From contig JAENYU010000041.1 of assembly GCA_016841625.1 (NCBI GenBank), positions 1-24,000 of the forward strand: a stretch of 24,000 nucleotides of DNA, in the 5' to 3' direction. The notes beneath the pieces are model-generated. The model was not told where the DNA came from. It made no database searches and saw nothing but the letters and a program-made list of their open reading frames with translations. The stretch's first letter is position 1; each line of letters starts with the position of its first letter. The stretch comes from Methanobacteriota archaeon. GTDB taxonomy: Archaea > Halobacteriota > Methanosarcinia > Methanosarcinales > Methanosarcinaceae. The position numbers and the translations under genes are program-made. Below, one piece after another: positions 43-22,366 of this stretch.

Positions 43-201
43 TCAAACTAAGGCTTCAATCGAATCGGCAAAGGCAAAGAGGGCATCAACACGACGGACT
101 ATTTCGTGCTGTTCGGGGAGGGGTGGGAGTGGGAGAGGGCAGTAACGGATTGAAGAAGTTTTTGGTAAATAAAAAAGAAAAACTAAATTTTGAGCAACTA
201 C
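43..201 (-). pseudogene. hsdS: Relic of the conserved region of a type I restriction-modification specificity subunit (HsdS)
   Basis: The minus-strand frame reads ...[32 protein letters not shown]. The block LPPLxEQxxIVxxVDxLxxxxD is the hallmark conserved region of HsdS (compare EcoKI [22 protein letters not shown]). Only about 30 aa are recognisable and there is no target-recognition domain. The relic is bounded by stops and forms a G+C-rich patch inside AT-rich DNA. Confidence 0.55.
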
Positions 202-1104
202 TCAAAAAACCCCGAGACTTTGCTCTTTTGATTTATTAGATATTTTAAGATATACTTCGTTAATTTTATTTATACAAAATAATCTGTTTTCATCGATTAC
301 TTTGACTAAATCCTCTGTGATTTGAAGTTCATCACGTTTATACGTAACACTTTTTCTTTTTTGAAGTATAATTTCATTTTTATCAGGGTAAGACCAGACG
401 GCATCGTGTGCAACTCTATTTCTAATGGATTTTATAAATTCTAATTTTTCATTGATCTCCTTTGTAATGCTCGTTTCTATGCCTTCTTCTTTGCATATTT
501 TTAAAAAAATGTTCTTTTTCTTGTCAAAATTTAATGTTATTATAATTAGATCTTCTAAAAGAAAGGTCTTCCTACTCTGTGGTGTACAAAAGTAGTTTGA
601 GATAAAAAAATCTAAATAGTCTTCAATGTGTACTGCCATCCTCAATATTTCACCACATTTTTCATTGAAGTTTTTATTTATATCTTCAATATCGACTTGC
701 TTTCCAGTAAGCAAATCTAAAAAATCATCATCAACGTAACAGAAAGATTGTGGTGCTTTAAAATCAGTAATTAATGAGTATGGATCGAAAGATTTTGGGA
801 AAATTTCTAGGTTTTCAATTGTAATTGCAAAACCTTGTTGCTTATTCCTGAAATAATTAAAGAAATTTTCTTTTCCAATCCCAGCAAAATCATTGCATTG
901 CTCCCATAATTCATTTGGGCTTCCTTTAATGATTTTACCAATTGTAAAGGCACCTATAATTTTTTTTACGGGATGACTTGAATAAATGAATACCTTTTTT
1001 ATTTCGTGGGGAGTTCTGAATATTACTCTTCTAAACTCATATTTTTTACTCCCATTAATTATTTCTTCAACATAAGTTGGTTTAATTGACAGTAAAACGT
1101 TCAT
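202..1104 (-). CDS. ASCH (PUA-like) domain protein fused to a C-terminal HEPN-like domain
   Basis: 300-aa ORF. The N-terminal ~125 aa fit the ASCH pattern: LLSIKPTYVEEIINGSKKYEFRR, VFIYSSHPVKKIIGAFTIGKII, SPNELWEQ, APQSFCYV. The C-terminal helical half carries an Rx4H HEPN signature (SIRNRVAHD). GAGG lies about 9 nt upstream of the ATG. The ATG sits 23 nt inside the upstream ORF, which suggests translational coupling. Confidence 0.75.
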   Translation of the reverse strand: MNVLLSIKPTYVEEIINGSKKYEFRRVIFRTPHEIKKVFIYSSHPVKKIIGAFTIGKIIKGSPNELWEQCNDFAGIGKENFFNYFRNKQQGFAITIENLEIFPKSFDPYSLITDFKAPQSFCYVDDDFLDLLTGKQVDIEDINKNFNEKCGEILRMAVHIEDYLDFFISNYFCTPQSRKTFLLEDLIIITLNFDKKKNIFLKICKEEGIETSITKEINEKLEFIKSIRNRVAHDAVWSYPDKNEIILQKRKSVTYKRDELQITEDLVKVIDENRLFCINKINEVYLKISNKSKEQSLGVF

Positions 1105-2605
1105 CGATTAGGCCTCGTTTTCTCAATAAAAGGTATTCTTCATGAGTTATCTGAGTTATGCTTTGGGGGGCAGCTTTTAAAATTCCAATTTCCTTTAATT
1201 CTTCCAATCCTAAAGGATTTGGCAAATGAAAATGCCATGTAAATAATATAACCAAAACGGGTTTTTTTGCGAAGTATTCAATTTCTGCTATTGGATAGAC
1301 AGATCTCTTTGCGATATATCGAATTATTTCTTCTTTGTTTTGAATTCCATTAAGCGCCTTTTCAACAACTCCTAATGAAGTTACAGCACTTTCATCTTGT
1401 GAACGATAAAATAATATAATGTCTCCACTTGAGATTTTTTTTATGTTTGAATGGCAAACATAGGCTTTTTTAATGGCATTACCTTCAATGATAAATCTAC
1501 CTGCAAACTCATCTAATGTAGGTTGCCTTCCTTTTTTTTGCTTGCTTTTATATTCGGTGAACAGCTTTTTGTGCCACTCCGGAAGAATAGGTACTATGAA
1601 TTTATTTACGTTTTTTCCATCACAATAACTAGGGTAATATTTTTTTGACATTTCATTTGCATTTATGTATTCAGTTTTGCTTTCATAAACAAGTTTTTTA
1701 AGGAATACTTTCTCCCCGCTCTGATTGAGAGTGGATACATTTTCGAAACCATACTCACTGATTAGATCAACAAGAAAATCGGAAGGTTTTATAAAATGAG
1801 TAAGATATATCTCATTGATTTTATTCTTGATTGAATAATCAACTGCAAGTTTGATAAAAAGTTCTCCAATTATGTTTCCTATATGGGATACTTTAAATGT
1901 GGACAACTTCAGCCTTTTTTTCTTGAAAAGTGGAGGTGTTGAATCTATCGGTTCGCATTCTACCTTATAAATTAGTAAGGCTCCAAGTTTCCCATTTTCT
2001 TTGAGATGGACAAAACATTTTCTACCTTCCCTTGAGATCCTCTTGAACCAATTTTCAAAATTATTTTCTCCATACTCTTCTTTTAGAGAATCGAAAAATT
2101 GATCATTTAAATCTAAATTGTAGACAAATTCATCTCTCAGGGCTGGAAGATGTGATATATTATTTGTATATACTCTATTTCCAAAGATCTCAATAGCTTC
2201 GTCAACTGATAACACACGATCTTTGATCCCCAAACGTTTAGATTTTTGGTGGATGTTATGATCACTTGTAATTAAAAAATCAGCAGCATCTTTATAAATT
2301 GCATACAGTATTGAATTATCAATTTCATCATTAATTTTTGATGGATTCCCAACAGCATTAAGGAACTCTTCATCCTTCACTGGATTAGGGGGGGATTCTA
2401 ATAATGGGTATGCTCCGATTTTTGATAAAACTATAATTTTTCTATTTTCATCAGTATCTCTTTTTATATCTTCGATTGAACCCGGATGTATGAGTATGCT
2501 TGCCTTTACTTGATAAAGGATTTTTACTAAATTCTGAATATTTAAAGAAAGAACTTTGTAATCCTCTCTATAAATAAATATATTCGTGTCAATCAATATA
2601 CGCAT
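1082..2605 (-). CDS. PIN - GNAT-like - ASCH/PUA-like triple-domain protein
   Basis: 507-aa ORF. The N-terminus is a classic PIN domain (MRILIDTNIFIY ... DFLITSDHN, with the acidic residues present). The middle is GNAT-like (GALLIYKVE ... LKLSTFKVSHIGNIIGELFIKLAVDYS ... EIYLTHF ... LISEYGFE ... GEKVFLKKL). The C-terminus is PUA-like (KKISSGDIILFYRSQDESAVTSLGVVEKA ... VLVILFTWHF ... AAPQSITQI) and shares the (A/P)PQS motif with the downstream ASCH protein. Confidence 0.75.
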   Translation of the reverse strand: MRILIDTNIFIYREDYKVLSLNIQNLVKILYQVKASILIHPGSIEDIKRDTDENRKIIVLSKIGAYPLLESPPNPVKDEEFLNAVGNPSKINDEIDNSILYAIYKDAADFLITSDHNIHQKSKRLGIKDRVLSVDEAIEIFGNRVYTNNISHLPALRDEFVYNLDLNDQFFDSLKEEYGENNFENWFKRISREGRKCFVHLKENGKLGALLIYKVECEPIDSTPPLFKKKRLKLSTFKVSHIGNIIGELFIKLAVDYSIKNKINEIYLTHFIKPSDFLVDLISEYGFENVSTLNQSGEKVFLKKLVYESKTEYINANEMSKKYYPSYCDGKNVNKFIVPILPEWHKKLFTEYKSKQKKGRQPTLDEFAGRFIIEGNAIKKAYVCHSNIKKISSGDIILFYRSQDESAVTSLGVVEKALNGIQNKEEIIRYIAKRSVYPIAEIEYFAKKPVLVILFTWHFHLPNPLGLEELKEIGILKAAPQSITQITHEEYLLLRKRGLIDERFTVN

Positions 2606-2789
2606 GTTATTACTTCTTGTAAGGTCTTCTTTAATAAAAATATGTTTGTTTATTCTTAAAGGATCATCTTAAATAAATATAATGTCTACATTTTAGATAT
2701 ATTGATTTTGTTTCGATCTGATGGTTTTTCAATTGAAGACTTTCATGAGGTTCATTGGTTGTAAATTCAAGGATAGTTGGTGTGTTTAA
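2606..2789. promoter_or_regulatory. Divergent AT-rich control region of the ASCH/GNAT cassette
   Basis: A 184-bp gap lies between the divergently oriented ORFs. TATA-like boxes occur on both strands (aaataaatataatg about 2671-2684; ttttagatatatt about 2691-2703). A perfect 10-bp palindrome TTCAATTGAA sits at 2728-2737. GGTG lies 7 nt upstream of the TTG start at 2790. Promoter assignment is inferred, not demonstrated. Confidence 0.3.
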
Positions 2790-4664
2790 TTGGAGAAAGA
2801 GGAATACCAATTTAAAGTACTTTATCTCAAAAATGAACTTGACAGTGTTAAACTTCTACTACAAGATGCTCCTGAGTTTCAGAAACATTATCTAGATTTT
2901 AATAGATGGCTTGATAATGCATTAAAAGAAGCTCAGGAAGGAAAAAGGCTAGTTTATGCTTTGTATCGGCCAATTATGGATAATGGAAATCCTATATTAC
3001 AAATGATTGGTGTAGCTTTCATAAAAATAACTGGACAAACAGCTGAATTGAAAAGTCTGTTTGTTCATGATAGCTCACGAGGGTCTGATAGAAAATATGG
3101 GAGTCATCTATACAAAAATGTAGAAGAGCAATTAGCAAAAAAGGGAGTCTCCAAGATAATTACCGATGTTCCCTGCGAGAATAATCAGGTAAGTTGGTTT
3201 CTTATTCAACATGGTTTTCAGATTAACGGTTTAATTGAAAGGTACAAAAAAGATGACTTTTGTTATATTTTATCTAAAGATGTTAAATCATACTATACAG
3301 GGGATATTTTTGATTGGTATAATGTTGTGAGTTGGTTTTTGGAAAATGTATATCAGTTTGAAATTGGAGAACCTGATATTCTGAATTCAGATAAAATGCT
3401 ACTTATTCCAATATTAAACAATAATAAAAATTTAAGGGTGCCTTTGTTACCATCTTTAAAAGGTATTTCTTTAGTATACGATGTGATGGAAGAAAGTGAT
3501 CTGTTAGTTGTCGATAGTTTATTAGAGAGAATAGATGGAAGCATTCGCATCGTTTTCGCAAAAGAGTTTGGTGATGGGATTGTAGCTAAACTTAATGAAA
3601 ATCATTTTTTAACGTTTGACCAGAATCAGGTCTTTGAATTATGTGGTTGCCCAGATCTCATCTTTGAAAAAGATGAGATTAAGGGGATTATTGTTGAAAT
3701 GAAAAATGATTATTTTGGACGAATAGATGAAGAGTTAGAATACTTTACTTATGTAAAAGGGGCAGGTATTGGAAAATTTGCCAAAAAAGACGATTTTGTA
3801 TTGTTCTTTGTTGATCGTCACGATAAATATCCACAAGGTGCCCTAATGGGTTTTGGAAAAATTAAAAAAATTTCATGTGCGTCCCCAAAAGAACAATGGA
3901 TTCATTATGGACAATTAAATCCCCTTTTTTCGCAGCAGGAATTTGATCAGTTCACGAGTTATAAAAAAGAAGTAATTGGAATTGTAGTCGAAGATTTTAC
4001 GAAAATCTCTCCTATTTCTCATGATGAATTCAGGACTCTGTTCTCAGGAGTAATTTCTACTGAAGACATTGGAAATATGTATGTAAATGAAGATTTCATG
4101 GAGATATTTATGGAAGATGTATCAAATGAAATGAAATCTATAGAAAATAAGGAAATAAGTAATAATGATCCAAATGGTACAAATGACACTGCTCTATTAT
4201 CACCCGAAAAACCCTACAGCAATATTAGAAATTTGAGACTTTCTCTTGAGAATTGTAAAACATTTATTTGGTGGATAGATAAACACTTCAGTAAAAAAGG
4301 GTTTGAGCCGTTAGCAGAGATTGTGGATGCCAACAAGGTACAAAATATCAGAATCTTAATGGGCAATAGCAATGTAAATGATAGCATGAAAAAAGATTAT
4401 GAAAGATTCAAAAGTGAAATGAACAATAAAGAAATCGAAGTCGAATGCCGAGTTATATCAGACTCAAGTCTTTTAAATAAAATTCATGATAGATGGGTTA
4501 TAGCTGAAAATGTAACATATAATCTCCCACCCATAAACACGATTTATCAGAATCAATTTGCTGAAATCAAAAAAACAAACATTTCACTCCCCTTTGATGA
4601 TTGGTGGGATCAAGGAATTGAATTAATTTCAGGCTGGAATTCTATTTTAAGCGCAAAAAAGTGA
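2790..4664 (+). CDS. GNAT acetyltransferase - ASCH/PUA-like - C-terminal MIT_C/PLD-fold-like multidomain protein
   Basis: 624-aa ORF. It opens directly after an in-frame TAA, so the TTG at 2790 is the only start that keeps the GNAT domain intact. GNAT: IGVAFIKITGQTAELKSLFVHDSSRGSDRKYGSHLYKNVEEQLAKKGVSKIITDV...NNQVSWFLIQHGFQ. The mid region parallels the ASCH protein (DDFVLFFVD...MGFGKIKKISCASPKEQWIHYG...VIGIVVEDFTKI). An Asn-rich linker follows. The C-terminal ~150 aa (FIWWIDKHF...IRILMG...EIEVECRVI...KIHDRWVIAENVTYNLP) follow, as I recall it, the strand/HDR pattern of the MITD1 C-terminal PLD-fold domain. Confidence 0.7.
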   Translation: MEKEEYQFKVLYLKNELDSVKLLLQDAPEFQKHYLDFNRWLDNALKEAQEGKRLVYALYRPIMDNGNPILQMIGVAFIKITGQTAELKSLFVHDSSRGSDRKYGSHLYKNVEEQLAKKGVSKIITDVPCENNQVSWFLIQHGFQINGLIERYKKDDFCYILSKDVKSYYTGDIFDWYNVVSWFLENVYQFEIGEPDILNSDKMLLIPILNNNKNLRVPLLPSLKGISLVYDVMEESDLLVVDSLLERIDGSIRIVFAKEFGDGIVAKLNENHFLTFDQNQVFELCGCPDLIFEKDEIKGIIVEMKNDYFGRIDEELEYFTYVKGAGIGKFAKKDDFVLFFVDRHDKYPQGALMGFGKIKKISCASPKEQWIHYGQLNPLFSQQEFDQFTSYKKEVIGIVVEDFTKISPISHDEFRTLFSGVISTEDIGNMYVNEDFMEIFMEDVSNEMKSIENKEISNNDPNGTNDTALLSPEKPYSNIRNLRLSLENCKTFIWWIDKHFSKKGFEPLAEIVDANKVQNIRILMGNSNVNDSMKKDYERFKSEMNNKEIEVECRVISDSSLLNKIHDRWVIAENVTYNLPPINTIYQNQFAEIKKTNISLPFDDWWDQGIELISGWNSILSAKK

Positions 4665-4673
4665 AAGGTTCAA

Positions 4674-4700
4674 GGAAAAGCCGCTTCGCTTCGCGAACGG
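4674..4700 (+). repeat. Copy A of the recurring GGAnAAGCCGCTT hairpin element
   Basis: The sequence is ggaaaagccgcttcgcttcgcgaacgg. The first 20 nt are identical to 15822-15841. It can fold as CCG-C-TTCGC / loop TTC / GCGAA-CGG. It sits in the convergent gap at the right edge of AT-rich island 1. Confidence 0.6.
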
Positions 4701-10283: not shown

Positions 10284-11534
10284 TCATTTTGCCTGTAATT
10301 TGAGCTTCTGCTCCTTTGCCACAAAGGTCCGCAGGAGAGACAGCGAGATATGTGCAGTAACAACGGCAAGGCCAACAGGAGCCATGGCGATGGGACCAAT
10401 GCCAACCGTGCCGGCCGCTATCAGTACCAGGGAAACCGGTGCGCTCAGGAAAGCACCCGGTACCGCCGCCAGCATAGCTCCAACACACAGTGCAATGGGG
10501 AGATCAGGGAAAATGCTGTGTACCAGGAGCCCCGCTGTTCCACCAATAAAGATTATGGGAAAGACGATACCCCCCAAAAAGCCGCTTGATTCACTTAACG
10601 CCACTGCGAACATTTTGGCGATCAGGACGGCAACAAGAAAACCGAACCCGATTGTGGCGGAAATCTGAAGTTCGGTAGCAAGCTGGCTGCTGCCGGAGGT
10701 CGCCGTAAGAGGGAGGGCGAATGCGATCAGGCCGACAATTGCACCACCGATCGTACCAGCCACAAGAGGATTGGGGATGCGCGCGAATGCGGCTGAAACC
10801 ACCTTTCTAATGAGGATTAAGAGCAGCAGTACGAATGCGGACAACACACCGAGCAGTGCTCCTACCAGCAGATAACCGAAAGAAAACTCATACGCCGGAA
10901 GTGCATAGGAACCCAGCATCGTGCTGCCTGTCACGCCAAAAAAAATGGCAAATCCGACGGTTGCTCCGAACAGTTCGGGAATGAACGCGGCCAGATAGTT
11001 ACGCTTCGGGGTCGGCCCGAGTTCAGACGCCAGCACTGCCGCAAACAGGGGGGCGCTGAAAGCGGCTCCCATACCACTTACCATACCGGTTAACGCATAC
11101 TCATGCTTTGCCTCGTCATCACGTATTCCCAGGCGCAATGCAAGCCATGAGCCGATACCGCCACCCATCATGGTGAGGGCAAAAAACGGGCCCAGACTTG
11201 CGCCGGCAATGAGTGAAACTGCTGATATCGCAACCAGGGAGAGTACATTCCCCGGATCGACCCACGCCTGGTGAGCGAGTGTTATCGGATCGGTAACTTT
11301 TTCTGGAATCTTCCAGATTTTGCGCATCACGGCAACCGTAAGCCCCCCAAGGGCTGTCAATGGTATCCACCACCAGTTGCCGGTCCACCAATCAGTACCG
11401 GTGCCACTATAGAAAAAGTCACTTCCTGCACCTATAATTCCCATGAAAAGGAGAGCTGAAACTCCCCCAACCACTCCAATTAGTAGTGCAAGCACTAGAA
11501 GCTTTTTGTACCACGGTTTCTCAAGTGGAAGCAT
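10284..11534 (-). CDS. ClC (voltage-gated chloride channel) family membrane protein, non-canonical selectivity motifs
   Basis: 416-aa polytopic ORF with ClC-like blocks: IAGASLGPFFALTMMGGGIGSWLA, GMGAAFSAPLFAAVLASEL, GFLGGIVFPIIFIGGTAGLL. There are no CBS domains. The GSGIP and GxEGP motifs are not canonical. Confidence 0.65.
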   Translation of the reverse strand: MLPLEKPWYKKLLVLALLIGVVGGVSALLFMGIIGAGSDFFYSGTGTDWWTGNWWWIPLTALGGLTVAVMRKIWKIPEKVTDPITLAHQAWVDPGNVLSLVAISAVSLIAGASLGPFFALTMMGGGIGSWLALRLGIRDDEAKHEYALTGMVSGMGAAFSAPLFAAVLASELGPTPKRNYLAAFIPELFGATVGFAIFFGVTGSTMLGSYALPAYEFSFGYLLVGALLGVLSAFVLLLLILIRKVVSAAFARIPNPLVAGTIGGAIVGLIAFALPLTATSGSSQLATELQISATIGFGFLVAVLIAKMFAVALSESSGFLGGIVFPIIFIGGTAGLLVHSIFPDLPIALCVGAMLAAVPGAFLSAPVSLVLIAAGTVGIGPIAMAPVGLAVVTAHISLSLLRTFVAKEQKLKLQAK

Positions 11535-11959
11535 ATCTTACTCCTGTCAATCTCCAGACACTCTTACTGAATTCCCCAGGCAGCCAGGTGCAGTGGTAGG
11601 CAGCCTACGTGCGCAGATATTCCGGATTAAAAGGCTCGCGTTCCTTGAAATCAACTTCCAGGTTGAAAATGTGCAGGAAACATCCACAGGCTAATGATCG
11701 ATGCGCTTTGTGTCAGCGCCGTGCCGTGCACCGCCTCCTGAGGCGATATGAATGCTCTGTTCGTCCGATCAAATGGACGAGCAGAGCAGGTGTTCATTCA
11801 GGCTAATCCCGTCGATAAACTGGCAACCCGTCGGCGCGCGCCCTCGCTAAACTTCTTGAGTGCCGGTGGGGTCCAGGTCCTTTCCTGAGCGGCCTGTTCA
11901 GGGGCTTTTTGGCCCCATTTTTCGATCTTCCGTTAATTCACCACAACGGCGGAATCAGC

Positions 11960-13423
11960 TCATTTCACCTTCACAGGCCCTGGCATATTGTACGACCCGT
12001 CGATGATGGACATCTTCGGCCCGTAGAACCTTGCCGTGAAGCGGAAACCGCCTTCAGGTGCCGGAAGCCAGTTCTGAACCCGGGCAGGGTCGGAGGGTTT
12101 TTCGTGCTGGATGTAGATGGTGAGTTTTCCGTCTTCGATGTGAAGGTCTCCCCGGTCGACCATGAAACTGCTGATCGTGTAACGGTTGAGCTCATTGGCA
12201 ACAAAGTAGCCATCGGAATCGTAGATCGGGATGGACCAGAACTCGGTCACAGGCGGGAGGTCGTCCATGTCGAAGCTGAGGGTGTAGCTATATTTGCCGT
12301 CAAGTTTCTTGCCGTCGGCATCGATGAACAGGAAGCTTCCTACGTGAGAGATGTTGCTGTCGGGGCCGGCCCAACCCGCATCAGCCAGGACTGCCCGTGT
12401 CAGGTACTCGGTTTCAAAGCCCCCTTCGACGTTAAGAACCATCCAGCTGTTCATGGGCATCAGGCTTTCCTGCGTCGCTTTCTTGACCTTCTTGTAGCCG
12501 TTTATGAAACCCTCGGTAAGTGCATTCTGCATTTTCTGATCCAGTTCGGACCACTGGAAGTTCTTGCCGGGCCCTATTCCGATCTTCGACAGCCGGGAGA
12601 GCATCGCTGCTTCCTTTTTGGAGTCCTTCATTAACGGCATGCTGGGATCGTTAAGCACCAGGTTCATGTAGGTAAAAAAATCCTCTGCAGTCTGCCGGTC
12701 AACCTGTCTGGCAGTCAGTTCGGTCATGCGGGGAAATGTCCGGTAATTCCCGGATACGTCCTCCTGGTCTTTCCTGGGAACTCCCCGGTGTCCGTTGTCA
12801 ATCCATTTGCTCAATGGCGTGATGGTGCACTGGTCCTGCAAACCGTTGATATGGCGCACTTCCTCCTCACTTCCCTCCATCAGCGCGATCCTGATATTTG
12901 CAAAAGCCGTCATGCTGGGCGAATGAATCACTTCCGTCGTGGCAAAATCGGCCGGGATTTTCCCGCCCCAGAATTCCGGTACGATGAGATAAGTCCTGGC
13001 CCGGGTGCCGTTGAACTGGTTACCTGCGTACAGGAAGTAAATGCCGTACTGGTCCATGAGCTGCAGGCTGAAATAGCGGTCCGGGATCTCAGGCACTTCC
13101 ATGACCACAGGCTCCTCCAGCAGGTCAAGGAACGCCGTAGCGTAAAGTGTTGTGGCATTCGGTGTTACTATGGCCTTGAAATCGGGAGTAATTGGCTTAC
13201 CCTCGTTGACTAAAAAGTAGCGGTTAGTCCCCACATAGACGTCGCTGTCCTCTGCCTGGGTGTAATTGTAGCGCGTCTCGTAGAAAATGACCTGCTGTAG
13301 GCCGTAAAGATAGGCATCTTCCGCGATTACCGCCGCTTCGATCGTACCGCTTGCTTCGGGCGCACTGCCCGATACTTCCTTAAACTTCTGTGCAATCATA
13401 CTTCCCATAAAAATACCTCCCAT
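11960..13423 (-). CDS. DUF1254/DUF1214 domain-containing protein
   Basis: 487-aa ORF. The N-terminal half has the DUF1254-like EDAYLYGLQQVIFYETRY...PNATTLYATAFLDL. The C-terminal half has the DUF1214 signature FWSIPIYDSDGYFVANELNRYTISS...LTIYIQHEKPSD...NWLPAPEGGFRFTARFYGPK. Confidence 0.85.
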   Translation of the reverse strand: MGGIFMGSMIAQKFKEVSGSAPEASGTIEAAVIAEDAYLYGLQQVIFYETRYNYTQAEDSDVYVGTNRYFLVNEGKPITPDFKAIVTPNATTLYATAFLDLLEEPVVMEVPEIPDRYFSLQLMDQYGIYFLYAGNQFNGTRARTYLIVPEFWGGKIPADFATTEVIHSPSMTAFANIRIALMEGSEEEVRHINGLQDQCTITPLSKWIDNGHRGVPRKDQEDVSGNYRTFPRMTELTARQVDRQTAEDFFTYMNLVLNDPSMPLMKDSKKEAAMLSRLSKIGIGPGKNFQWSELDQKMQNALTEGFINGYKKVKKATQESLMPMNSWMVLNVEGGFETEYLTRAVLADAGWAGPDSNISHVGSFLFIDADGKKLDGKYSYTLSFDMDDLPPVTEFWSIPIYDSDGYFVANELNRYTISSFMVDRGDLHIEDGKLTIYIQHEKPSDPARVQNWLPAPEGGFRFTARFYGPKMSIIDGSYNMPGPVKVK

Positions 13424-13549
13424 TCATTGACTATCTGAACCCCACATTGAGAACGTGTCACTTCATGATATTATATTCCGATTTTTATAAAACGCTTTTC
13501 TGAAGTAGATTCCGTTTAGTGTCGAGAGGATCTCTTTTATTCCATCCCG

Positions 13550-13576
13550 GGACAAGCCGCTTCGCTCTGTGAGCGA
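13550..13576 (+). repeat. Copy B of the GGAnAAGCCGCTT hairpin element
   Basis: The sequence is ggacaagccgcttcgctctgtgagcga. It shares GGAnAAGCCGCTTCGCT with copies A and C. It can fold as TCGCTC / TGT / GAGCGA. Confidence 0.45.
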
Positions 13577-13586
13577 GAAAAAGAAT

Positions 13587-13671
13587 GGGAAAAAAGAAAG
13601 GGAAAAAGAAAGGGAAAAAGAAAGGGAAAAAGAAAGGGAAAAAGAAAGGGAAAAGGAAAGGGAAAAAGAAA
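13587..13671. repeat. All-purine 12-bp tandem repeat (GGGAAAAAGAAA) x7
   Basis: There are seven head-to-tail units: the first is 13 bp, the sixth is GGGAAAAGGAAA, and the rest are identical. The plus strand is 100% purine. The minus strand reads (TTTCTTTTTCCC)n immediately downstream of the GTPase gene. Confidence 0.95.
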
Positions 13672-13690
13672 GGGTGAAGTGAAACTGTTT

Positions 13691-13743
13691 CGGTTCTTCC
13701 AGCTACTCTGGTTCTTCCGGATACTCTGGCTCTTCCGGATCCT
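13691..13743. repeat. About 18-bp tandem repeat (CTGGTTCTTCCGGATACT) x3, imperfect
   Basis: The three units are cggttcttccagctact / ctggttcttccggatact / ctggctcttccggatcct. They lie directly between the purine repeat and the GTPase stop codon. Confidence 0.85.
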
Positions 13744-13754
13744 GATTCAGCTGC

Positions 13755-14519
13755 TCAAATCACAAGCTGGCCGCGCTGCCAATCATTGACAACCCTCACA
13801 GCCGCCCTCATCTCGTCAACCTCTCCTTTCTTCTTCAGGAAGTTGCACTGTATGCCTATCATTTCAAGCACGTCATAGGAGTTCTGGGCTTCAATTGTGA
13901 CGTGATAGAAGGCTTCAAGGGCGGGTTTGTTTTCGGCGCAGATCTTTTCGATTATTTTCAGGGCGACGCCGAGAGGGTCTTTCAGGTGGGTCGTATCCTT
14001 TACTCCGAGCAAGCCCTGGATGTATTCGTCATGTTCGTCGAAGGGGATCACACCGGGGGTGTCGATGAACATGATACGGGAGCCTGCGCCCACAAGCTGC
14101 AAACCTCTAGTGTGACCGGAAATTGAAGACGTACTGGCTTTGTTTTTCCCGGTCACGCTGTTGATTACCGAGGACTTGCCCGTATTGGGGTAGCCAAGAG
14201 CCCCTACCAGGATGTCCCTGTCCTTTATGCTTGCGACCTCCTGGATCTTATGTCTCAACATCGTTGTCCCGTTCTTATCCTTGCTGGACATAAAAACCGT
14301 AGGGGCGATTTTCGAGAGGATAGACTTGCTTTTCTCAAGTTTTTCATTTGAAACGAGGTCGCATTTGTTGAGGACTATTATAAACGGCTTCTTTGCCCGC
14401 ACCATATTCCGCTCGACCTCGCTGTTCCGGGTCTCGTCGGGAAAACGGGCGTCTATGACCTCAAGAAGGACGTCGGCTTTTTTTATGACGCCCTTTACCA
14501 TCAGCTTATAGCTTGTCAT
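13755..14519 (-). CDS. Circularly permuted GTPase (YlqF/YawG-RbgA class), ribosome-biogenesis type
   Basis: 254-aa ORF with permuted G-motif order: G4 NKCDL (aa about 51) comes before G1 GYPNTGKSS (aa about 109) and G3 DTPG (aa about 153). Confidence 0.85.
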   Translation of the reverse strand: MTSYKLMVKGVIKKADVLLEVIDARFPDETRNSEVERNMVRAKKPFIIVLNKCDLVSNEKLEKSKSILSKIAPTVFMSSKDKNGTTMLRHKIQEVASIKDRDILVGALGYPNTGKSSVINSVTGKNKASTSSISGHTRGLQLVGAGSRIMFIDTPGVIPFDEHDEYIQGLLGVKDTTHLKDPLGVALKIIEKICAENKPALEAFYHVTIEAQNSYDVLEMIGIQCNFLKKKGEVDEMRAAVRVVNDWQRGQLVI

Positions 14520-16477: not shown

Positions 16478-17890
16478 ATGGATCATCAACAAGCAAATAC
16501 TTCCATGAAAAAGAGAGTTACAGATTTAATTGTTATCTTTTCTGATGGACTGTACGAACGAGAAGAGATTGTTGCAGTTTCTCTTCTTTCAGTCCTTTCC
16601 GGGCAGTCAATTTTTTTATATGGCTTGCCAGGCACAGCGAAAAGTCTAATTGCCCGTCGTATATCAAAGGTGTTTAAAGATACAACTCATTTTGAGTATT
16701 TGATGCAAAGATTTAGCACTCCTGAAGATGTTTTTGGACCTGTAAGTATTCGAGAACTAAAACAGGACAATTACATTCGCAAAACAGAAGGCTACTTACC
16801 CACTGCTGACTTTGCTTTTCTTGATGAAATATGGAAAAGTAGTCCAGCCATTTTAAACACACTCTTGACTATTATAAATGAGCGAATTTATCGCAATGGC
16901 GGAAAAGACGAAAAAGTTCCATTAAAAGCATTGATTGCTGCAAGTAATGAGACTCCACCACCCAATCAAGGATTAGAAGCTCTCTATGACCGTTTTGTAA
17001 TGCGAGTAATAGTAAATCCTATGGAAGAAAGAGAGAATTTTGAAAAACTACTTGAAGGAGATGCTGTCTCGACTGATATTGAAATTCCGGATGGACTACA
17101 GTTTACTCACGATGAGTTTGAGCAACTTTCCAGTGAAATCGTTAAAGTAACAATTTCCAAAGAGGTATTTACCATCATAAATTCAATCAGAGTTTCACTT
17201 GATGAATTTAATAAAGATAATCCCAAAATTGCAGTTTATGTTTCTGATCGTAGGTGGCAGAAAATTGCACTCATTTTGAAAACATCTGCATTTTTGTGTG
17301 ACCGCACTGAGGTAATACCCGTTGATGCCCTTATATTACGACATTGTTTGTGGACACTTGAACAAAATAGAGAGCAAATTAATGAAATAATTGAAAAATG
17401 TGTGAAACAGTTTGGCTGCACCAACAATGAGAAGTTAAATAGCTGGGAATTGAACCATAAGGACCTTGAAAAAGGTATGTCTGATACATTCTTTTATACG
17501 GAAAATATTTATGACACCGAGAAAAAAGAAAATGTGCTAAATTATGGTGGGAAGTCCGGTTATGACAACGATTCATTTGTCAAATGGTTTGATTCAACTC
17601 CATCCATAAAAGTTAAAAAGGGAACTCAAAAGGCTGTGGCCCCAAGGACTAAAGATACTTTTGTTAAAGCTTGTGAAGATTCTTTGAGTTCACTTGCTGA
17701 AATTATTAATGACGCAAAATCTAATGTCGCTATTCAAAAAAAATTGAATGAAACCCCATTTGTACCTTCAGAAAAAAGAGAATTAGTGTTTGATGTATTC
17801 AACTCTTTTCTCAAAGATTTAGAAAACCACAAATTGAATGCCGAGCGTTTGTTGGAAAAGGTGCAATCTTATGCAATCTCCGAATCGTGA
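16478..17890 (+). CDS. ravA: RavA-like MoxR-class AAA+ ATPase
   Basis: 470-aa ORF, colinear with the E. coli RavA AAA+ module as I recall it: LYEREEIVAVSLLSVLSGQSIFLYGLPGTAKSLIARR (Walker A), FEYLMQRFSTPEDVFGP, ADFAFLDEIWKSSPAILNTLLTIINER (Walker B), LIAASNE (sensor 1), LEALYDRF (Arg finger), VSDRRWQKIALILKTSAFLCDRTEVIPVDALILRHCLW. The C-terminal ~170 aa diverge and I see no evident LARA-like domain. Confidence 0.85.
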   Translation: MDHQQANTSMKKRVTDLIVIFSDGLYEREEIVAVSLLSVLSGQSIFLYGLPGTAKSLIARRISKVFKDTTHFEYLMQRFSTPEDVFGPVSIRELKQDNYIRKTEGYLPTADFAFLDEIWKSSPAILNTLLTIINERIYRNGGKDEKVPLKALIAASNETPPPNQGLEALYDRFVMRVIVNPMEERENFEKLLEGDAVSTDIEIPDGLQFTHDEFEQLSSEIVKVTISKEVFTIINSIRVSLDEFNKDNPKIAVYVSDRRWQKIALILKTSAFLCDRTEVIPVDALILRHCLWTLEQNREQINEIIEKCVKQFGCTNNEKLNSWELNHKDLEKGMSDTFFYTENIYDTEKKENVLNYGGKSGYDNDSFVKWFDSTPSIKVKKGTQKAVAPRTKDTFVKACEDSLSSLAEIINDAKSNVAIQKKLNETPFVPSEKRELVFDVFNSFLKDLENHKLNAERLLEKVQSYAISES

Positions 17891-19346
17891 AATTGCTAAA
17901 ACAGAGGAATTAGTCAATACTTTTCTTTCAGAAGATTTCCCTGATCTAAATAGTGGAGAACTTGAAAAAGAATTGAGTGGAAAAGTTAGTAATTGGGAGG
18001 AGTCAACTCTCAGTTATTTAGAAAACTCAAACCCTTTTGAAAAACATCGGTCTAAATTGGTCTCTGCAAAATGGGATTTTCTGGCACATGGTGGCTCTGA
18101 AAAGTCAATTATAAGCGATTTAGAGGAATATAAGTCACTCCAACCATCCGCAGATGTTATGTTTTGGGAAGAAAAGACACTTGCTGTGAAAAAAAAGGTA
18201 GAGGAAAAGGAGAAAGAGTCAATCATAGAAAGCCTTAATGTTATTCGTAGGAATGAGCAAGAAGCATGGAGAACAGAGTATGAAAAACAATTACTTGAAT
18301 GGCAACTCAAAGAAATCCAAAATCGCCGGGAACAATTGTTAAAAGAGTTAAAAGAATGGCTTGACCCTTTACAGCAAATGAAAGAGGTATTTGATGAGTT
18401 GGGTGTTGAGCCTGGACTTTTGTGGGATTCAAGTGTTGGCAAATTAAGTAAGCAAGACATATCTTTCCTTAAACAATGGGCAGAATATCTGAAAAATAAT
18501 GAAAGCGTTCGTAATTTATGTGAATTAATGGGAAGATTACATAAAGAACAACAATCTCATCACAAAGAGATTATTAATTCAACCGTTCAATATACTGTTA
18601 TAAAACCAGATATATATTCCAATGAAGAGATTGTTGGTATTGAGCTTGGTAGAGATTTAGAAAATGTTATACCACAAGAATTGGCTCTATTAAGTGACTC
18701 TGATATTGCATTGCTTTTTGACTTGAAATATGTTGAAAATCGACTGATGTGTTTTTCTCAACAGGGCTACAAAACAGAAATCTTTGAAGAGAACATTCAG
18801 AAAACCGTAAGCATTGTTGATGATGAAAAGATGGGGCCGATAATTATTTGTGTTGATACAAGTGGATCTATGTCAGGTGCTCCAGAGAATATAGCTAAAG
18901 CATTAACTCTTAGTTTGTCATCTCGAGCAGTTTCTCAAAAGAGAAAATGTTATTTGATAAATTTCAGTACTTCAATAGAGACCCTTGATCTTACCCCTCC
19001 GAAAGGCATTCATGATTTGATAAACTTTCTTAAAATGAGTTTTCATGGGGGCACCAATGTTGCACCAGCTTTACACGAGGGGGTACGGATGATGTTGGAA
19101 GCTGATTACAAAAAAGCGGATTTATTGGTTATTTCAGATTTTGTTCTCTATGGTTTATCTTCTAATATTGTTTCCCAGTGCAAAAAGCAAAAACAAGAGG
19201 ATAATCGCTTTTTTGCATTGTCCATCGGTAGTTTTGACCCTCAGCGTGTTGATGAAGATGTTTTTGATCAGAGTTGGACATATAACCCTCAAAGTGGTGG
19301 CATTTCAGAAATCAACAATGTGGTTGAATGTGTTACTCGGAAATAA
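17871..19346 (+). CDS. viaA: ViaA-like protein: coiled-coil-rich N-terminal region plus C-terminal von Willebrand factor A domain with intact MIDAS
   Basis: The ORF is open from 17838, and the ATG at 17871 (MQSPNREI) overlaps the ravA-like stop by 20 nt. VWA/MIDAS: IIICVDTSGSMSG ... CYLINFST ... FHGGTNVAPAL ... ADLLVISDF. This parallels E. coli ViaA (VCVDTSGSM..., CYIMLFST, FRGGTD, VVISDF). The start codon is uncertain (17838 or 17871). Confidence 0.8.
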   Translation: MQSPNREIAKTEELVNTFLSEDFPDLNSGELEKELSGKVSNWEESTLSYLENSNPFEKHRSKLVSAKWDFLAHGGSEKSIISDLEEYKSLQPSADVMFWEEKTLAVKKKVEEKEKESIIESLNVIRRNEQEAWRTEYEKQLLEWQLKEIQNRREQLLKELKEWLDPLQQMKEVFDELGVEPGLLWDSSVGKLSKQDISFLKQWAEYLKNNESVRNLCELMGRLHKEQQSHHKEIINSTVQYTVIKPDIYSNEEIVGIELGRDLENVIPQELALLSDSDIALLFDLKYVENRLMCFSQQGYKTEIFEENIQKTVSIVDDEKMGPIIICVDTSGSMSGAPENIAKALTLSLSSRAVSQKRKCYLINFSTSIETLDLTPPKGIHDLINFLKMSFHGGTNVAPALHEGVRMMLEADYKKADLLVISDFVLYGLSSNIVSQCKKQKQEDNRFFALSIGSFDPQRVDEDVFDQSWTYNPQSGGISEINNVVECVTRK

Positions 19347-19444: not shown

Positions 19445-22366
19445 TCAAAAGCCAATCGCCCTTTCGGCCGGGATCACAGCCATTGGCACCTGGCCTACGA
19501 GGCGGGCTACTATCCTGCAGCGGGAAAGGAGATATTTTTCTTTCCTGATGTCCTCAAGGCGGTCGAAGATGTGGCTGTTTTCAGGGCTTTCGGGAATATT
19601 TTCCCGGATGGTTGTTTCGAGAGATTCCATTTTTTGCATGAGGAGTTTTTTGTCGGCTGAGCTTTCGAAGGCCCAGTCCCGGACTTCGCGACTGACGGCA
19701 GAGGCGATTTCTTCGGAGGAAGTGCCTTTTACCAGGAAGCAGGCAAAACGGGCTTTTGCCCTGATTTCCTCAAGGGTGTCTTTCGTCCTCTGTTCCGAAA
19801 CCTTCTGCTTTAGGGCAGGGTGTCCTTTTTGCCCAAATTTCTTTAAAAGGACGGCTCCTTCTTCAGCCCGCTCGAAAAGGGCACAGGAATCCTCAAAGAT
19901 CTGGAGAGAAGCTTCAAGAAACTTCTTCTCGGAAGCAAGGTCTATTGAGCCGGTTTCAGCAGCGTCCTGAAGGATTTTTGCAAACTTCCTAAACTCCCTT
20001 GAGAGGGCGTCGATTTCGTCTACATCTCCCATTTCACAGACCATGGCTGAAAAGTACTTCTCGGACTCTTCCCTGCCGGGATCGGAAGGATTGGAAGGAT
20101 CGGAAGAAACGGAGACTTTTCCGGAAGATCCAGCAGACAGAAGGTTCAGGAAGGCTTCGTAGAAGTTCAGGTAGAAGCCTGGAAGGAGGTGGTTGGAAGC
20201 TGTTTCGGCCGAATTCCTGAAATCCAGAACGGCTTCTTCAAGCCCGCGCATGTATTCGGCTTCAGATTTTGCCTTTGCCGCATCATGGAGGGAGGCTATG
20301 CCGAGGGAGCGGAAAGCATACTTCCGCACGTAAGCACACTCTGAACCTGTTAGTTTCTCAAGGCTCTCCAGGGCCTGATGAGGGTCGGGATGCACCGTAT
20401 AGGCAGACTCAAAGGCCCGGGCAGCTGCCCTCTGGACAGAACTGTCCCTGTGGTTTGTAAGGGACAGGAGATCAGCCCAGGCTTTCCTTTTGTCCGGAAC
20501 CAGCGGGAAAGAAGGAGCAAAAGCCTTTGCGGCTCCTTTCCGGACATCTTTGTCCCAGTGGGATGAAAGCTGCACAAGTCGGCCCCAGGCGTCCTGTTTA
20601 TCCTCTGCGAAGGGGAAGGCCGGAGCGAGCAGGTCCGATGCACTTTTCCGGAGGTAATTTTCCGGTCCTGAACAGAGATCGGAAAGGTTGTAAAAGATAC
20701 ACGTTTTATCTTCCACCTGGGGGAGAACCAGGGAGAGAAGGTCGGCAGCATCCTTGCGGACAGAGGATTCATGGTCGACACCCATCCGCAAAACCTCCTC
20801 CCAGACATCTGTCATTATTTCTTGTCCCAGGCTTGCTTTTAACTCATTGTCCTGTTCTGAACCTGCTTCTATATCCTTCTCTGAACCTTCATTCATGCCT
20901 ATATTTTGGTTTCCTTGCCGGGAAAAGAGAGATCGGAGGGACACGGATGCACCCTTCCGAATTATGGGGTTGGGGTTTGCTGAAAGGTTTAGCAGTTTGC
21001 TACAGATCTTTTTCTTTTCCGGTAGGTGCGGGAAAGCCGATGCAAGGGAGTCGGCAGCATCCATCCGGACATAACTGTCCATATCGACCGTCAATTTCAA
21101 AAGTTCGACTGAAAGCTGTTTTTCCGGGTTTCCCGGTCCTTTTGCATTTCCTTCCTTGAAGACGGAAGCCAGGGAATACGCTACACTCCTGCGGGCAAAG
21201 GCAGGCTTTCTTGTAATTGTCGATAGTTCTTCAGAAGCTTCCTCATCGGAAGCAATGTGGGGGTAGGCAGAAGCGAGGGCATCCACTGTCCGCCTGATCA
21301 CATAACTGTGGCTTTCGGCTGTCAGGCGGAGGAGGTCATCCCAGGCTTTTTTCTTGTCGGAGACGTGCGGAAAAGCCTGGACAAGGGTGTCGGCAGCTCT
21401 TCCCCGTACATAGCTGACGTCACTTCCCGCAAGTTCGGTAAGGTCTTTCCAGGCACTGTCTTTATCCTCAAGGTGCGGGAATAACGAAGAAATGGAGTCC
21501 GCTGCCCTGTCCCTCACATGACCGTCTGCGGCTCCGCTGAGCTTTAGAAGGGTAGACCAGGCTCTATTCCTGTCGGGAAGGTGAGGGAAAACCAGAAACA
21601 TGGTATCTGCCGCGTGCCGCCGGAGAGTCCCCTTTTCAGAGGCAATCAGCCCTAAAAGGTCCTGCCATTCCGTTTCTTTATTTCGGGAACGGATAAAAGC
21701 GGAAGCAAGGGCTTTAAAATCTTCTTTCTGGAGAATTCCTCTCTCTTCCAGAGCAAGCTTGAAGAGCTCTTTCCAGGCTTTATCCTGGTCTTCAACGTGC
21801 GAAAATACCACCCCGAGAGCTCGGGTAGCCTCAACCCTGGTGTTCATGTTCGCAGACTCCCTCAGCTCAAACAGGTCTTTCCATGCCTGTATTTTATCAG
21901 GGACCAGAGGGAAAACCGATTTGAGGCAGGAAAAAGCATATTCCCTTACAGAATCGGTTCCGGAACCCGCAAGTTTCAGAAAGTCGGTCCATACCATCTG
22001 TTCTCCGGGCATAAGGGTATAAGAGGAAGCAAGGGCATGCACCGCTGCCTTCTGCACCCCCGGAGCCTGGCTGGCCGTGAGGCCTGCAAGTTTCGTCCAG
22101 AGCTTTATCCTGTCCGACACATGAGGATAAACCAATTCAAGATTTTTGACTGCAGTTTCCGCTACAAGGTTGTCCTTATCTGAGGAGAGCCTGAGCATAT
22201 CATCGAAAGCCTGCTCCCTATTAGGGAGGAATTCAAAATTAGCACTCAACTGGTTCAGGGCATCGATTTTCTCTTCCATAAAGGGAATTAAAGTTCTGTC
22301 GTGTAGGGTTTCTTGATCGATCACGTTTTCACCAACTCTGTTATAAACTGTCGCTTCTGCTTTCAT
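19445..22366 (-). CDS. Large HEAT-repeat (PBS-lyase-type HEAT-like) protein
   Basis: 973-aa ORF. The N-terminal ~700 aa contain about 15 repeats of about 38 aa following the pattern (S/D)xVRxxAAdaLxxaFPHvxDKxxAWxDLLxL. The C-terminal ~270 aa are helical and non-repetitive. Confidence 0.8.
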   Translation of the reverse strand: MKAEATVYNRVGENVIDQETLHDRTLIPFMEEKIDALNQLSANFEFLPNREQAFDDMLRLSSDKDNLVAETAVKNLELVYPHVSDRIKLWTKLAGLTASQAPGVQKAAVHALASSYTLMPGEQMVWTDFLKLAGSGTDSVREYAFSCLKSVFPLVPDKIQAWKDLFELRESANMNTRVEATRALGVVFSHVEDQDKAWKELFKLALEERGILQKEDFKALASAFIRSRNKETEWQDLLGLIASEKGTLRRHAADTMFLVFPHLPDRNRAWSTLLKLSGAADGHVRDRAADSISSLFPHLEDKDSAWKDLTELAGSDVSYVRGRAADTLVQAFPHVSDKKKAWDDLLRLTAESHSYVIRRTVDALASAYPHIASDEEASEELSTITRKPAFARRSVAYSLASVFKEGNAKGPGNPEKQLSVELLKLTVDMDSYVRMDAADSLASAFPHLPEKKKICSKLLNLSANPNPIIRKGASVSLRSLFSRQGNQNIGMNEGSEKDIEAGSEQDNELKASLGQEIMTDVWEEVLRMGVDHESSVRKDAADLLSLVLPQVEDKTCIFYNLSDLCSGPENYLRKSASDLLAPAFPFAEDKQDAWGRLVQLSSHWDKDVRKGAAKAFAPSFPLVPDKRKAWADLLSLTNHRDSSVQRAAARAFESAYTVHPDPHQALESLEKLTGSECAYVRKYAFRSLGIASLHDAAKAKSEAEYMRGLEEAVLDFRNSAETASNHLLPGFYLNFYEAFLNLLSAGSSGKVSVSSDPSNPSDPGREESEKYFSAMVCEMGDVDEIDALSREFRKFAKILQDAAETGSIDLASEKKFLEASLQIFEDSCALFERAEEGAVLLKKFGQKGHPALKQKVSEQRTKDTLEEIRAKARFACFLVKGTSSEEIASAVSREVRDWAFESSADKKLLMQKMESLETTIRENIPESPENSHIFDRLEDIRKEKYLLSRCRIVARLVGQVPMAVIPAERAIGF

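Follow-up and report, generated by a model that had tools for sequence, protein, structure and literature searches.

A gene on the reverse strand of a 24,000-nucleotide stretch of Methanosarcinaceae DNA (contig JAENYU010000041.1, positions 1 to 24,000; hereafter the window) encodes a 300-residue protein (202-1104, ATG start) in which an N-terminal ASCH domain is joined to a helical, HEPN-like C-terminal domain. We read this protein as the ASCH, or B, component of the predicted (PIN)-GNAT-EVE + ASCH module, which PADLOC lists as the candidate system PDC-M11, and we propose that it has gained a HEPN RNase by fusion, with the ASCH domain gating the RNase so that invasion would lead to growth arrest or abortive infection. 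We put the probability of this reading at about 60%. The main value of the fusion is that it would tie an otherwise unexplained ASCH protein to an RNA-cleaving effector, making the module experimentally tractable.

Both genes of the pair match the module. The PADLOC model PDC-M11A covers the full length of the 507-residue product of the neighbouring gene (1082-2605, reverse strand; E = 1.8e-153), which would be the A component, and PDC-M11B matches residues 1-132 of the 300-residue protein (E = 1.1e-48; the profiles have 132-164 positions). Because the PDC-M11B profile stops at about residue 132, the C-terminal half of the protein is an extra. Predicted (PIN)-GNAT-EVE + ASCH operons were reportedly described by Iyer et al. 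in 2013. By these profile matches, the gene pair is the PADLOC candidate PDC-M11, that is, the (PIN)-GNAT-EVE + ASCH operon of Bell et al. 2020. Nearly every (PIN)-GNAT-EVE operon codes for an ASCH protein (Bell, Wolf & Koonin 2020; PMC7641849); the form that contains PIN adjoins type I restriction-modification (R-M) and other defence systems, and the ASCH protein in such operons may have HTH-XRE as a fusion partner or, in Methanohalophilus, HsdS (PMC7641849). The word HEPN occurs 0 times in that article, and ASCH and PUA are both absent from the 2013 HEPN census. An earlier, sequence-only reading of this DNA had described the upstream gene as PIN-GNAT-ASCH. Its view of a PIN-GNAT protein with a third, PUA-like domain stands, with Pfam placing PIN_3 at residues 2-116 (E = 0.11) and giving no match for the GNAT part, but the third domain, at residues 386-494, is EVE (Pfam E = 0.0021; so named in PMC7641849) and not ASCH.

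The two halves of the fusion protein are ordinarily found apart. The B component is usually standalone and about 130-145 residues long and, since the ASCH (PDC-M11B) family is large and the best 120 of its 3980 matches are all 126-167 residues long, the HEPN fusion is a rare variant. The C-terminal residues, about 165 of them, also occur at about 50% identity as standalone proteins of 160-170 residues. An exhaustive profile search returned 472 representatives of this HEPN-like family (50% clustering, E<=1e-3), including 126 at E<=1e-10; nearly all members are standalone proteins of 150-180 residues, and the best 150 listed of the 472 include 1 ASCH fusion. Named members come mostly from Methanosarcinales archaea. 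When 185,579 species genomes were scanned for the domain, seven loci were found, with the fused form in Methanosarcina sp. KYL-1 only, and the domain had no real tblastn match in plasmid and phage collections. Judged by these distributions, the HEPN-like domain is a rare, late addition to the ASCH protein, drawn from a standalone HEPN-like family, in a few Methanosarcina strains. The standalone homologues have no conserved partner gene; their neighbours differ at each locus and are mutually dissimilar, so that nothing points to ASCH and HEPN as a split gene pair.

The HEPN-like domain spans residues ~139-295 (220-690, reverse strand) and carries the putative catalytic motif RNRVAH at residues 228-233 (406-423, reverse strand; R228 to H233), which the sequence-only reading had singled out as a HEPN signature. 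HEPN RNases are defined by Rx4-6H with a polar residue (N, D or H) straight after the arginine (PMC3710099). On its own such a motif is weak evidence, because one is present in 36% of 20,000 shuffles of the 300-residue protein, which itself holds a second, chance copy at residues 26-33; it is conservation that gives RNRVAH its meaning. The motif is invariant in an alignment of 10 close homologues (A2). Across 110 representatives (A3), N229 is invariant and R228, A232, H233, G151, E161, Y171 and K196 are at least 90% conserved, in support of the sequence-only reading. RNxxxH is present in 112 of 121 family representatives, and all six ASCH-HEPN fusion proteins keep R, N, A and H. The conserved acidic residue E161 (E28 of the domain) lies upstream of the motif and is not in an Ex3[KR] context.

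The predicted structure agrees with this assignment. AlphaFold2 (AF2) modelled the C-terminal domain alone with a predicted local distance difference test (pLDDT) score of 86.5 and the full-length protein with 90.7. The model has four main helices: the helix at residues 211-233 ends in RNRVAH and is followed by a beta-hairpin insert and a final helix at residues 264-295. In the published definition of HEPN, helix 3 ends in the motif, the arginine is followed by a polar residue and inserts are tolerated, and the predicted fold is compatible with HEPN on all of these grounds. Profile matches across the family converge on HEPN models, none of them above a curated cut-off. With Pfam, 22 of the 110 members match RiboL-PSP (best 8.5e-5) and 12 match Abi_2, with further matches to Cthe2314, Swt1 and Csm6-HEPN, while non-HEPN matches are singletons. 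With PADLOC, up to 12 members match CARF-HEPN/Csm6/Csx1 models (E = 1e-6 at best), 8 match AbiD (1.1e-4) and 5 match PD-T4-5, with further matches to Cas13b and RTasHEPN; the CARF-HEPN matches must fall on the HEPN part of those models, because the matching proteins are only 150-180 residues long. The best HEPN protein among PDB sequences was HepS (E = 0.24), whose catalytic R100-H105 (IRNKYAH) aligned on IRNRVAH and in which H105A abolishes defence. We consider it very likely that the C-terminal domain is a member of the HEPN superfamily. It is probably also catalytically competent, a view favoured by a conservation pattern that matches that of active HEPN RNases, HepS included.

Several observations weigh against this reading. 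The matches of the window domain itself to HEPN models all lie below curated thresholds (pEK499_p136, E = 0.003; RiboL-PSP, E = 0.025; also Abi_2, E = 0.07, and DUF4145). Profiles of the C-terminal family matched no PDB sequence significantly, and Foldseek of the domain model against the PDB gave no match at E<=1e-3; in the latter search the HEPN protein 2hsb ranked second (E = 0.27, probability 0.93, template modelling (TM) scores 0.42/0.54) and MtlR 3brj 37th. Four of the 121 representatives, all standalone members (P0023, P0037, P0055 and P0071), have glycine in place of the arginine (IGNxVAH), so the arginine is not universally required; these proteins may be inactive or work by a different mechanism. 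At the level of the module, PDC-M11 is only a candidate, and the literature yielded no experiment on a (PIN)-GNAT-EVE/ASCH system; the one paper listed under the name PDC-M11 goes no further than mentioning it, and Bell et al. likewise state that no such module had yet been characterised (PMC7641849). Lastly, at the locus of an 80% identical homologue (P0003; L023, 1-237), the upstream GNAT-EVE gene is apparently a remnant of about 55 codons ending in ...CGEIDERFNVN*, an uncertain observation given that the contig ends there; ASCH-HEPN may thus not depend strictly on an intact partner. Other searches were empty as well: Foldseek of the domain model against BFVD gave nothing at E<=1e-3 (the best viral match was an unnamed protein, E = 0.018), a HepS fragment had no match among phages and plasmids, and the UniRef name of one homologue (P0209), 'RiboL-PSP-HEPN domain-containing protein', was not reproduced with current Pfam.

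That no active HEPN protein was matched significantly in structure or above a curated threshold, together with the arginine-to-glycine changes, would also suit a catalytically inert HEPN-like module confined to dimerisation or RNA binding, and HEPN domains without catalytic activity are known (PMC3710099). We regard this as very unlikely: R, N, A and H are kept in six of six fusions and in at least 90% of the 110 representatives, the asparagine is invariant, E161 is conserved, and the overall pattern is that of active HEPN RNases such as HepS, for which loss of the motif histidine is also loss of defence.

The N-terminal assignment agrees with the sequence-only reading. Residues 1-124 (733-1104, reverse strand) are an ASCH domain, a PUA-like beta-barrel with the GxKxxExR motif (G18, K20, E23, R25). 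Pfam ASCH (PF04266) passes marginally (E = 3.7e-4; score 21.6 bits, gathering cut-off 21.2), and K20, E23 and R25 are invariant in the ASCH alignment (A4). A profile of the region matches ZmASCH of Zymomonas mobilis among PDB sequences over its whole length (5GUQ, 5GUS, 5Y6B and 5Y6C; E = 2.6e-23), and Foldseek of the full-length AF2 model finds ZmASCH at E = 9e-10 (TM 0.84, root-mean-square deviation 1.7 A), followed at lower scores by TTHA0113, the TRIP4 ASCH domain and YqfB (ranks 19-22). ZmASCH binds single-stranded RNA and single-stranded DNA in vitro and shows weak Mg-dependent cleavage of single-stranded RNA; residues Y47, K53, S128, R32, Y90 and Q127 have been implicated, by mutation or modelling, in nucleic-acid binding or cleavage (PMC5615036). 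The cleft residues Y47/K53/Y90/Q127/S128/R32 correspond to Y41/K47/Y84/Q119/S120/R25 of the window protein; five of the six are invariant in A4, and S120 is substituted in 1 of 9 sequences. On the strength of the model and these alignments, the domain is a close structural relative of ZmASCH whose predicted nucleic-acid-binding cleft is conserved.

A search for further ASCH-HEPN proteins, as the sequence-only reading had advised, recovered the full architecture in six protein clusters, the window protein and five others at 50-86% identity, all from Methanosarcina wherever a source is named (Methanosarcina sp. KYL-1 and M. mazei; the others come from metagenomes). Databases label these proteins 'hypothetical' or 'ASCH domain-containing'. 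As each half is known elsewhere as a standalone gene, one might suspect separate ASCH and small HEPN genes joined by a sequencing or assembly error. The architecture is, however, one uninterrupted open reading frame (ORF) in six independently assembled sequences, one of which is present on 46 M. mazei contigs, the longest of 4.2 Mb, so that an artefact is excluded for practical purposes and we give it almost no weight.

The two genes of the pair overlap, as the sequence-only reading had noted. The ASCH-HEPN ATG (1104-1102) lies inside the final 23 nucleotides (nt) of the 507-codon ORF, and the overlap (1082-1104, reverse strand) reads ATGAACGTTTTACTGTCAATTAA, ending the upstream protein in ...ERFTVN*. 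An overlap of 23 nt is also found in M. mazei (L006), in KYL-1 (L016) and at two loci (L004 and L005) of the P0012 group, a group whose sole named member is a Bacteroidales metagenome-assembled genome (MAG), and one of 29 nt is found at a fifth locus (L003). Across the overlap in these homologous loci both frames are kept, that is, the downstream N-terminus and the upstream C-terminus (DERFTVN/DERLTIN), and its presence in five other loci with both frames conserved, some of them distant, indicates that the overlap is no local accident. The partner of ASCH-HEPN is PIN-GNAT-EVE at L003 and GNAT-EVE in M. mazei, always with an overlap of 23-29 nt. Every ASCH-HEPN homologue begins with MNVLLSIKP, which makes the start codon secure. 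The GAGG mentioned in the sequence-only reading is present at 1113-1116 (reverse strand) with an 8-nt spacer to the ATG; we take it to be a putative Shine-Dalgarno-like element, and homologous loci have a purine-rich GGGG, GGGA or GAGG at this position. At the other end of the gene, 20 nt past the stop codon, lies an oligo-T tract (167-182, reverse strand; TTTTTCTTTTTTATTT). Archaeal RNA polymerase terminates at oligo-T, and this tract is likely to be an archaeal terminator. A scan for bacterial promoters and terminators gave counts equal to the shuffled expectation, the bacterial models not being applicable to an archaeon.

The junction between the two genes also seems to be a site of exchange. 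Between KYL-1 and the window, the ASCH-HEPN proteins share 86% identity, whereas identity falls to 44.5% for the C-terminus of the upstream GNAT-EVE protein, and the two genes therefore have different histories, pointing to module shuffling at the overlap; sequence identities of this kind make it seem that recombination has occurred at the conserved junction.

Both domains have entered other fusions. Rare proteins join the same ASCH domain to an AAA_17/18 kinase-like domain or to an N-terminal HTH (HTH-XRE-ASCH; P0017 and P0018). Others (P0008-P0010 and P0012; P0010 from a Bacteroidales MAG) are ASCH proteins of about 350 residues with a different C-terminal domain of about 220 residues that has an invariant WWNAYNxVKHxG motif and gives no Pfam match. 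We considered this domain as a divergent HEPN-like copy and rejected it (hhalign Prob 0.3 against the HEPN-like family). At the P0012 loci, a 370-residue GNAT gene overlaps the ASCH start by 23 nt and a separate 180-residue GNAT gene follows. The HEPN-like domain, for its part, is found at the N-terminus of proteins with one to five (or more) helicase-associated (HA) repeats (PF03457; P0061, P0074, P0085, P0094 and P0107); by this architecture, the domain has been joined to a nucleic-acid-binding module a second time, independently.

How the module might work can be sketched as follows. The two overlapping genes would be co-translated and their products would probably form one complex. The ligand of the ASCH barrel may be single-stranded nucleic acid or else a base or nucleotide that carries a modification, and its binding would target or gate the fused HEPN domain, which would dimerise as HEPN RNases do, cut RNA without a metal ion and stop translation. 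Detection of an invader would then end in growth arrest or abortive infection. In the partner, PIN would be a second RNase and GNAT a possible 'writer' of a mark read by EVE and ASCH. A more ambitious form of this idea, which we hold only tentatively and think doubtful, is an archaeal writer-reader-nuclease immune circuit in which GNAT acetylates a base or an aminoacyl-tRNA, or the invader itself supplies a modified nucleic acid or nucleotide, which ASCH would read and HEPN, activated by dimerisation, would act upon. If such a circuit existed, ASCH would be an exchangeable sensor or adaptor, wired by lineage to HEPN, an AAA_17-like kinase, HsdS, HTH or the ~220-residue domain.

The same gene order can be read as a toxin-antitoxin (TA) system, in which ASCH is the antitoxin or autoregulator of a PIN-GNAT-EVE toxin, binding DNA or RNA or reversing the GNAT modification, and HEPN is an opportunistic second toxin. 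Gene overlap is typical of TA pairs, the HTH-XRE-ASCH fusions would fit a regulator, and the ASCH-family protein YqfB is an ac4C amidohydrolase, making an 'eraser' role conceivable. However, similarity to YqfB is weak (E ~1e-2) relative to that to ZmASCH, and what we take to be the position of the YqfB threonine nucleophile is a glutamate (E23) in the window ASCH domain. Moreover, the ASCH gene lies downstream of the putative toxin gene, an order that is less common in TA pairs, and a toxin fused to its antitoxin would need a neutraliser of its own, of which none is visible. Bell et al. did read these operons as TA systems, with ASCH perhaps regulating (PIN)-GNAT-EVE expression (PMC7641849), but in the case of the fusion we find the TA explanation unlikely.

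The genomic neighbourhood bears on a third possibility. PrrC, an anticodon nuclease of the HEPN kind, is encoded within a type I R-M locus, and the fusion protein might similarly guard type I R-M: ASCH would dock on the HsdMS/R complex or its DNA, and HEPN would stay silent while restriction works and be freed when an invader disables R-M, acting as a tRNA or mRNA nuclease in the manner of PrrC and RloC. Directly 3' of the ASCH-HEPN gene lies an orphan remnant of the C-terminal conserved region of HsdS (43-129, reverse strand), 25 residues of which are identical to residues 404-428 of the M. mazei HsdS that adjoins the homologous module (L006); having no ORF upstream, the remnant is a truncated hsdS. 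The M. mazei partner is a 365-residue GNAT-EVE protein without PIN, encoded between hsdRMS, directly beside the module, and two MNT/HEPN pairs, and at L023 HsdS and HsdM are encoded nearby. Several ASCH homologues carry the JGI label 'type I restriction enzyme S subunit', and both the close tie of PIN-GNAT-EVE to type I R-M and the ASCH-HsdS fusion of Methanohalophilus (PMC7641849) would suit a guard. Yet the visible part of the window holds an hsdS fragment only and no intact R-M system, L003 is without R-M genes within 6 kb, the constant partner is PIN-GNAT-EVE or GNAT-EVE and not an Hsd protein, and the protein is without an NTPase domain of the PrrC/RloC kind. Guarding of this sort seems improbable to us, and we continue to prefer an ASCH-gated HEPN RNase within the (PIN)-GNAT-EVE + ASCH module.

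Divergent from the gene pair is a gene for a 624-residue GNAT-domain protein (2790-4664, forward strand; Pfam Acetyltransf_1 at residues 54-143, E = 7.2e-5), which has about 480 residues without a domain assignment beyond its N-terminal GNAT. At L003 the whole three-gene layout is repeated: a 647-residue homologue occupies the same divergent position, with 49% identity over residues 2-463 and a different C-terminus. No homologue is present at the M. mazei locus L006, and the protein may be a third, optional component of the module. BLASTP between it and the 507-residue protein was not significant, and PDB sequence searches with the two proteins were empty. GC content is 0.31 over the three genes (202-4664) and 0.45 in the remainder of the window, changing abruptly at about 4,650-4,700; this composition suggests a horizontally acquired island. 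No MNT, CARF or SAVED domain was found in the ASCH-HEPN protein or its two neighbours.

Elsewhere, the M. mazei locus (L006-L009) is a dense defence island; at 11519-14302, just downstream of ASCH-HEPN and with hsdRMS upstream, the two MNT/HEPN pairs (PF01909/PF05168) are TA-like. The other genes of the window are of ordinary chromosomal kinds, among them those for a permease-Usp fusion, an S-layer protein, a CLC channel and a MoxR-VWA pair. In that pair (16478-19346, forward strand), unrelated to ASCH-HEPN, overlapping genes encode a bpMoxR AAA+ ATPase of 470 residues and a VWA-domain protein of 502 residues; a 973-residue HEAT-repeat protein (19445-22366, reverse strand) adjoins them. In Pfam, bpMoxR stands for the MoxR domain of MoxR-vWA-beta-propeller ternary systems.

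The predicted module, the ASCH structures and PUA-like-HEPN proteins as a class are already known; what is new is the ASCH(PDC-M11B)-HEPN fusion, of which we found no description in literature or databases. The sequence-only reading had gone further and proposed that an ASCH sensor feeding a HEPN effector would be a new input logic. As it stands, that proposal is not supported: ASCH is a regular PDC-M11B component of a described module and the PUA-like-HEPN class appears in a 2026 preprint (bioRxiv 10.64898/2026.01.15.699771). The (PIN)-GNAT-EVE + ASCH module is nonetheless widespread and has stayed functionally uncharacterised since the predictions of 2013 and 2020. Here the fusion may act as a 'Rosetta stone': because ASCH is naturally fused to a putative HEPN RNase, it can be argued to stand beside, or to control, an RNA-targeting effector and to be more than a transcriptional regulator. 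RNase-dependent toxicity would offer an easy readout for the ligand or trigger of the ASCH family.

Compared with known systems, the pair is closest to (PIN)-GNAT-EVE + ASCH itself, sharing matches to both the A and B models, the same strand and order, the conserved overlap, the association with type I R-M and defence islands, and archaeal occurrence. It differs in that the usual B component is standalone or has HTH-XRE, HsdS or an AAA_17-like kinase as its fusion partner, whereas that of the window bears a 165-residue HEPN-like domain. ZmASCH (5GUQ; PMC5615036) has a homologous ASCH domain, and its cleft Y, K, Q and S are kept in the window protein; unlike the window protein, it is without a HEPN domain. 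With the defence HEPN RNases, including AbiD/AbiF (Abi_2), RiboL-PSP-HEPN, Csm6/Csx1, HepS and PrrC/RloC, the window domain shares R-N-x-x-A-H at the end of helix 3, an all-helical core, a defence-island context and sub-threshold profile matches. It stands apart from them in its partner domain, which is ASCH and not CARF, MNT, an ABC-type NTPase or none, in the beta-hairpin insert after the motif and in reaching no curated threshold. From MNT-HEPN and CARF/SAVED-HEPN systems it differs in having neither an MNT partner nor a CARF/SAVED fusion.

A final comparison is with PUA-like sensors. The 2026 preprint describes PUA-like domains fused to effectors, HEPN among those listed, and in PUA-Cal-HAD the PUA-like domain senses m6-dAMP and switches the effector on (bioRxiv 10.64898/2026.01.15.699771). 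By its published description alone, this type resembles the window protein in pairing an N-terminal domain of the PUA/ASCH clan with an effector, but its sensor belongs to another PUA-clan family, and it is bacterial and without a GNAT-EVE partner gene. With the ASCH-HEPN fusion, the emerging theme of PUA-like domains that sense modified nucleotides in immunity would gain an archaeal case.

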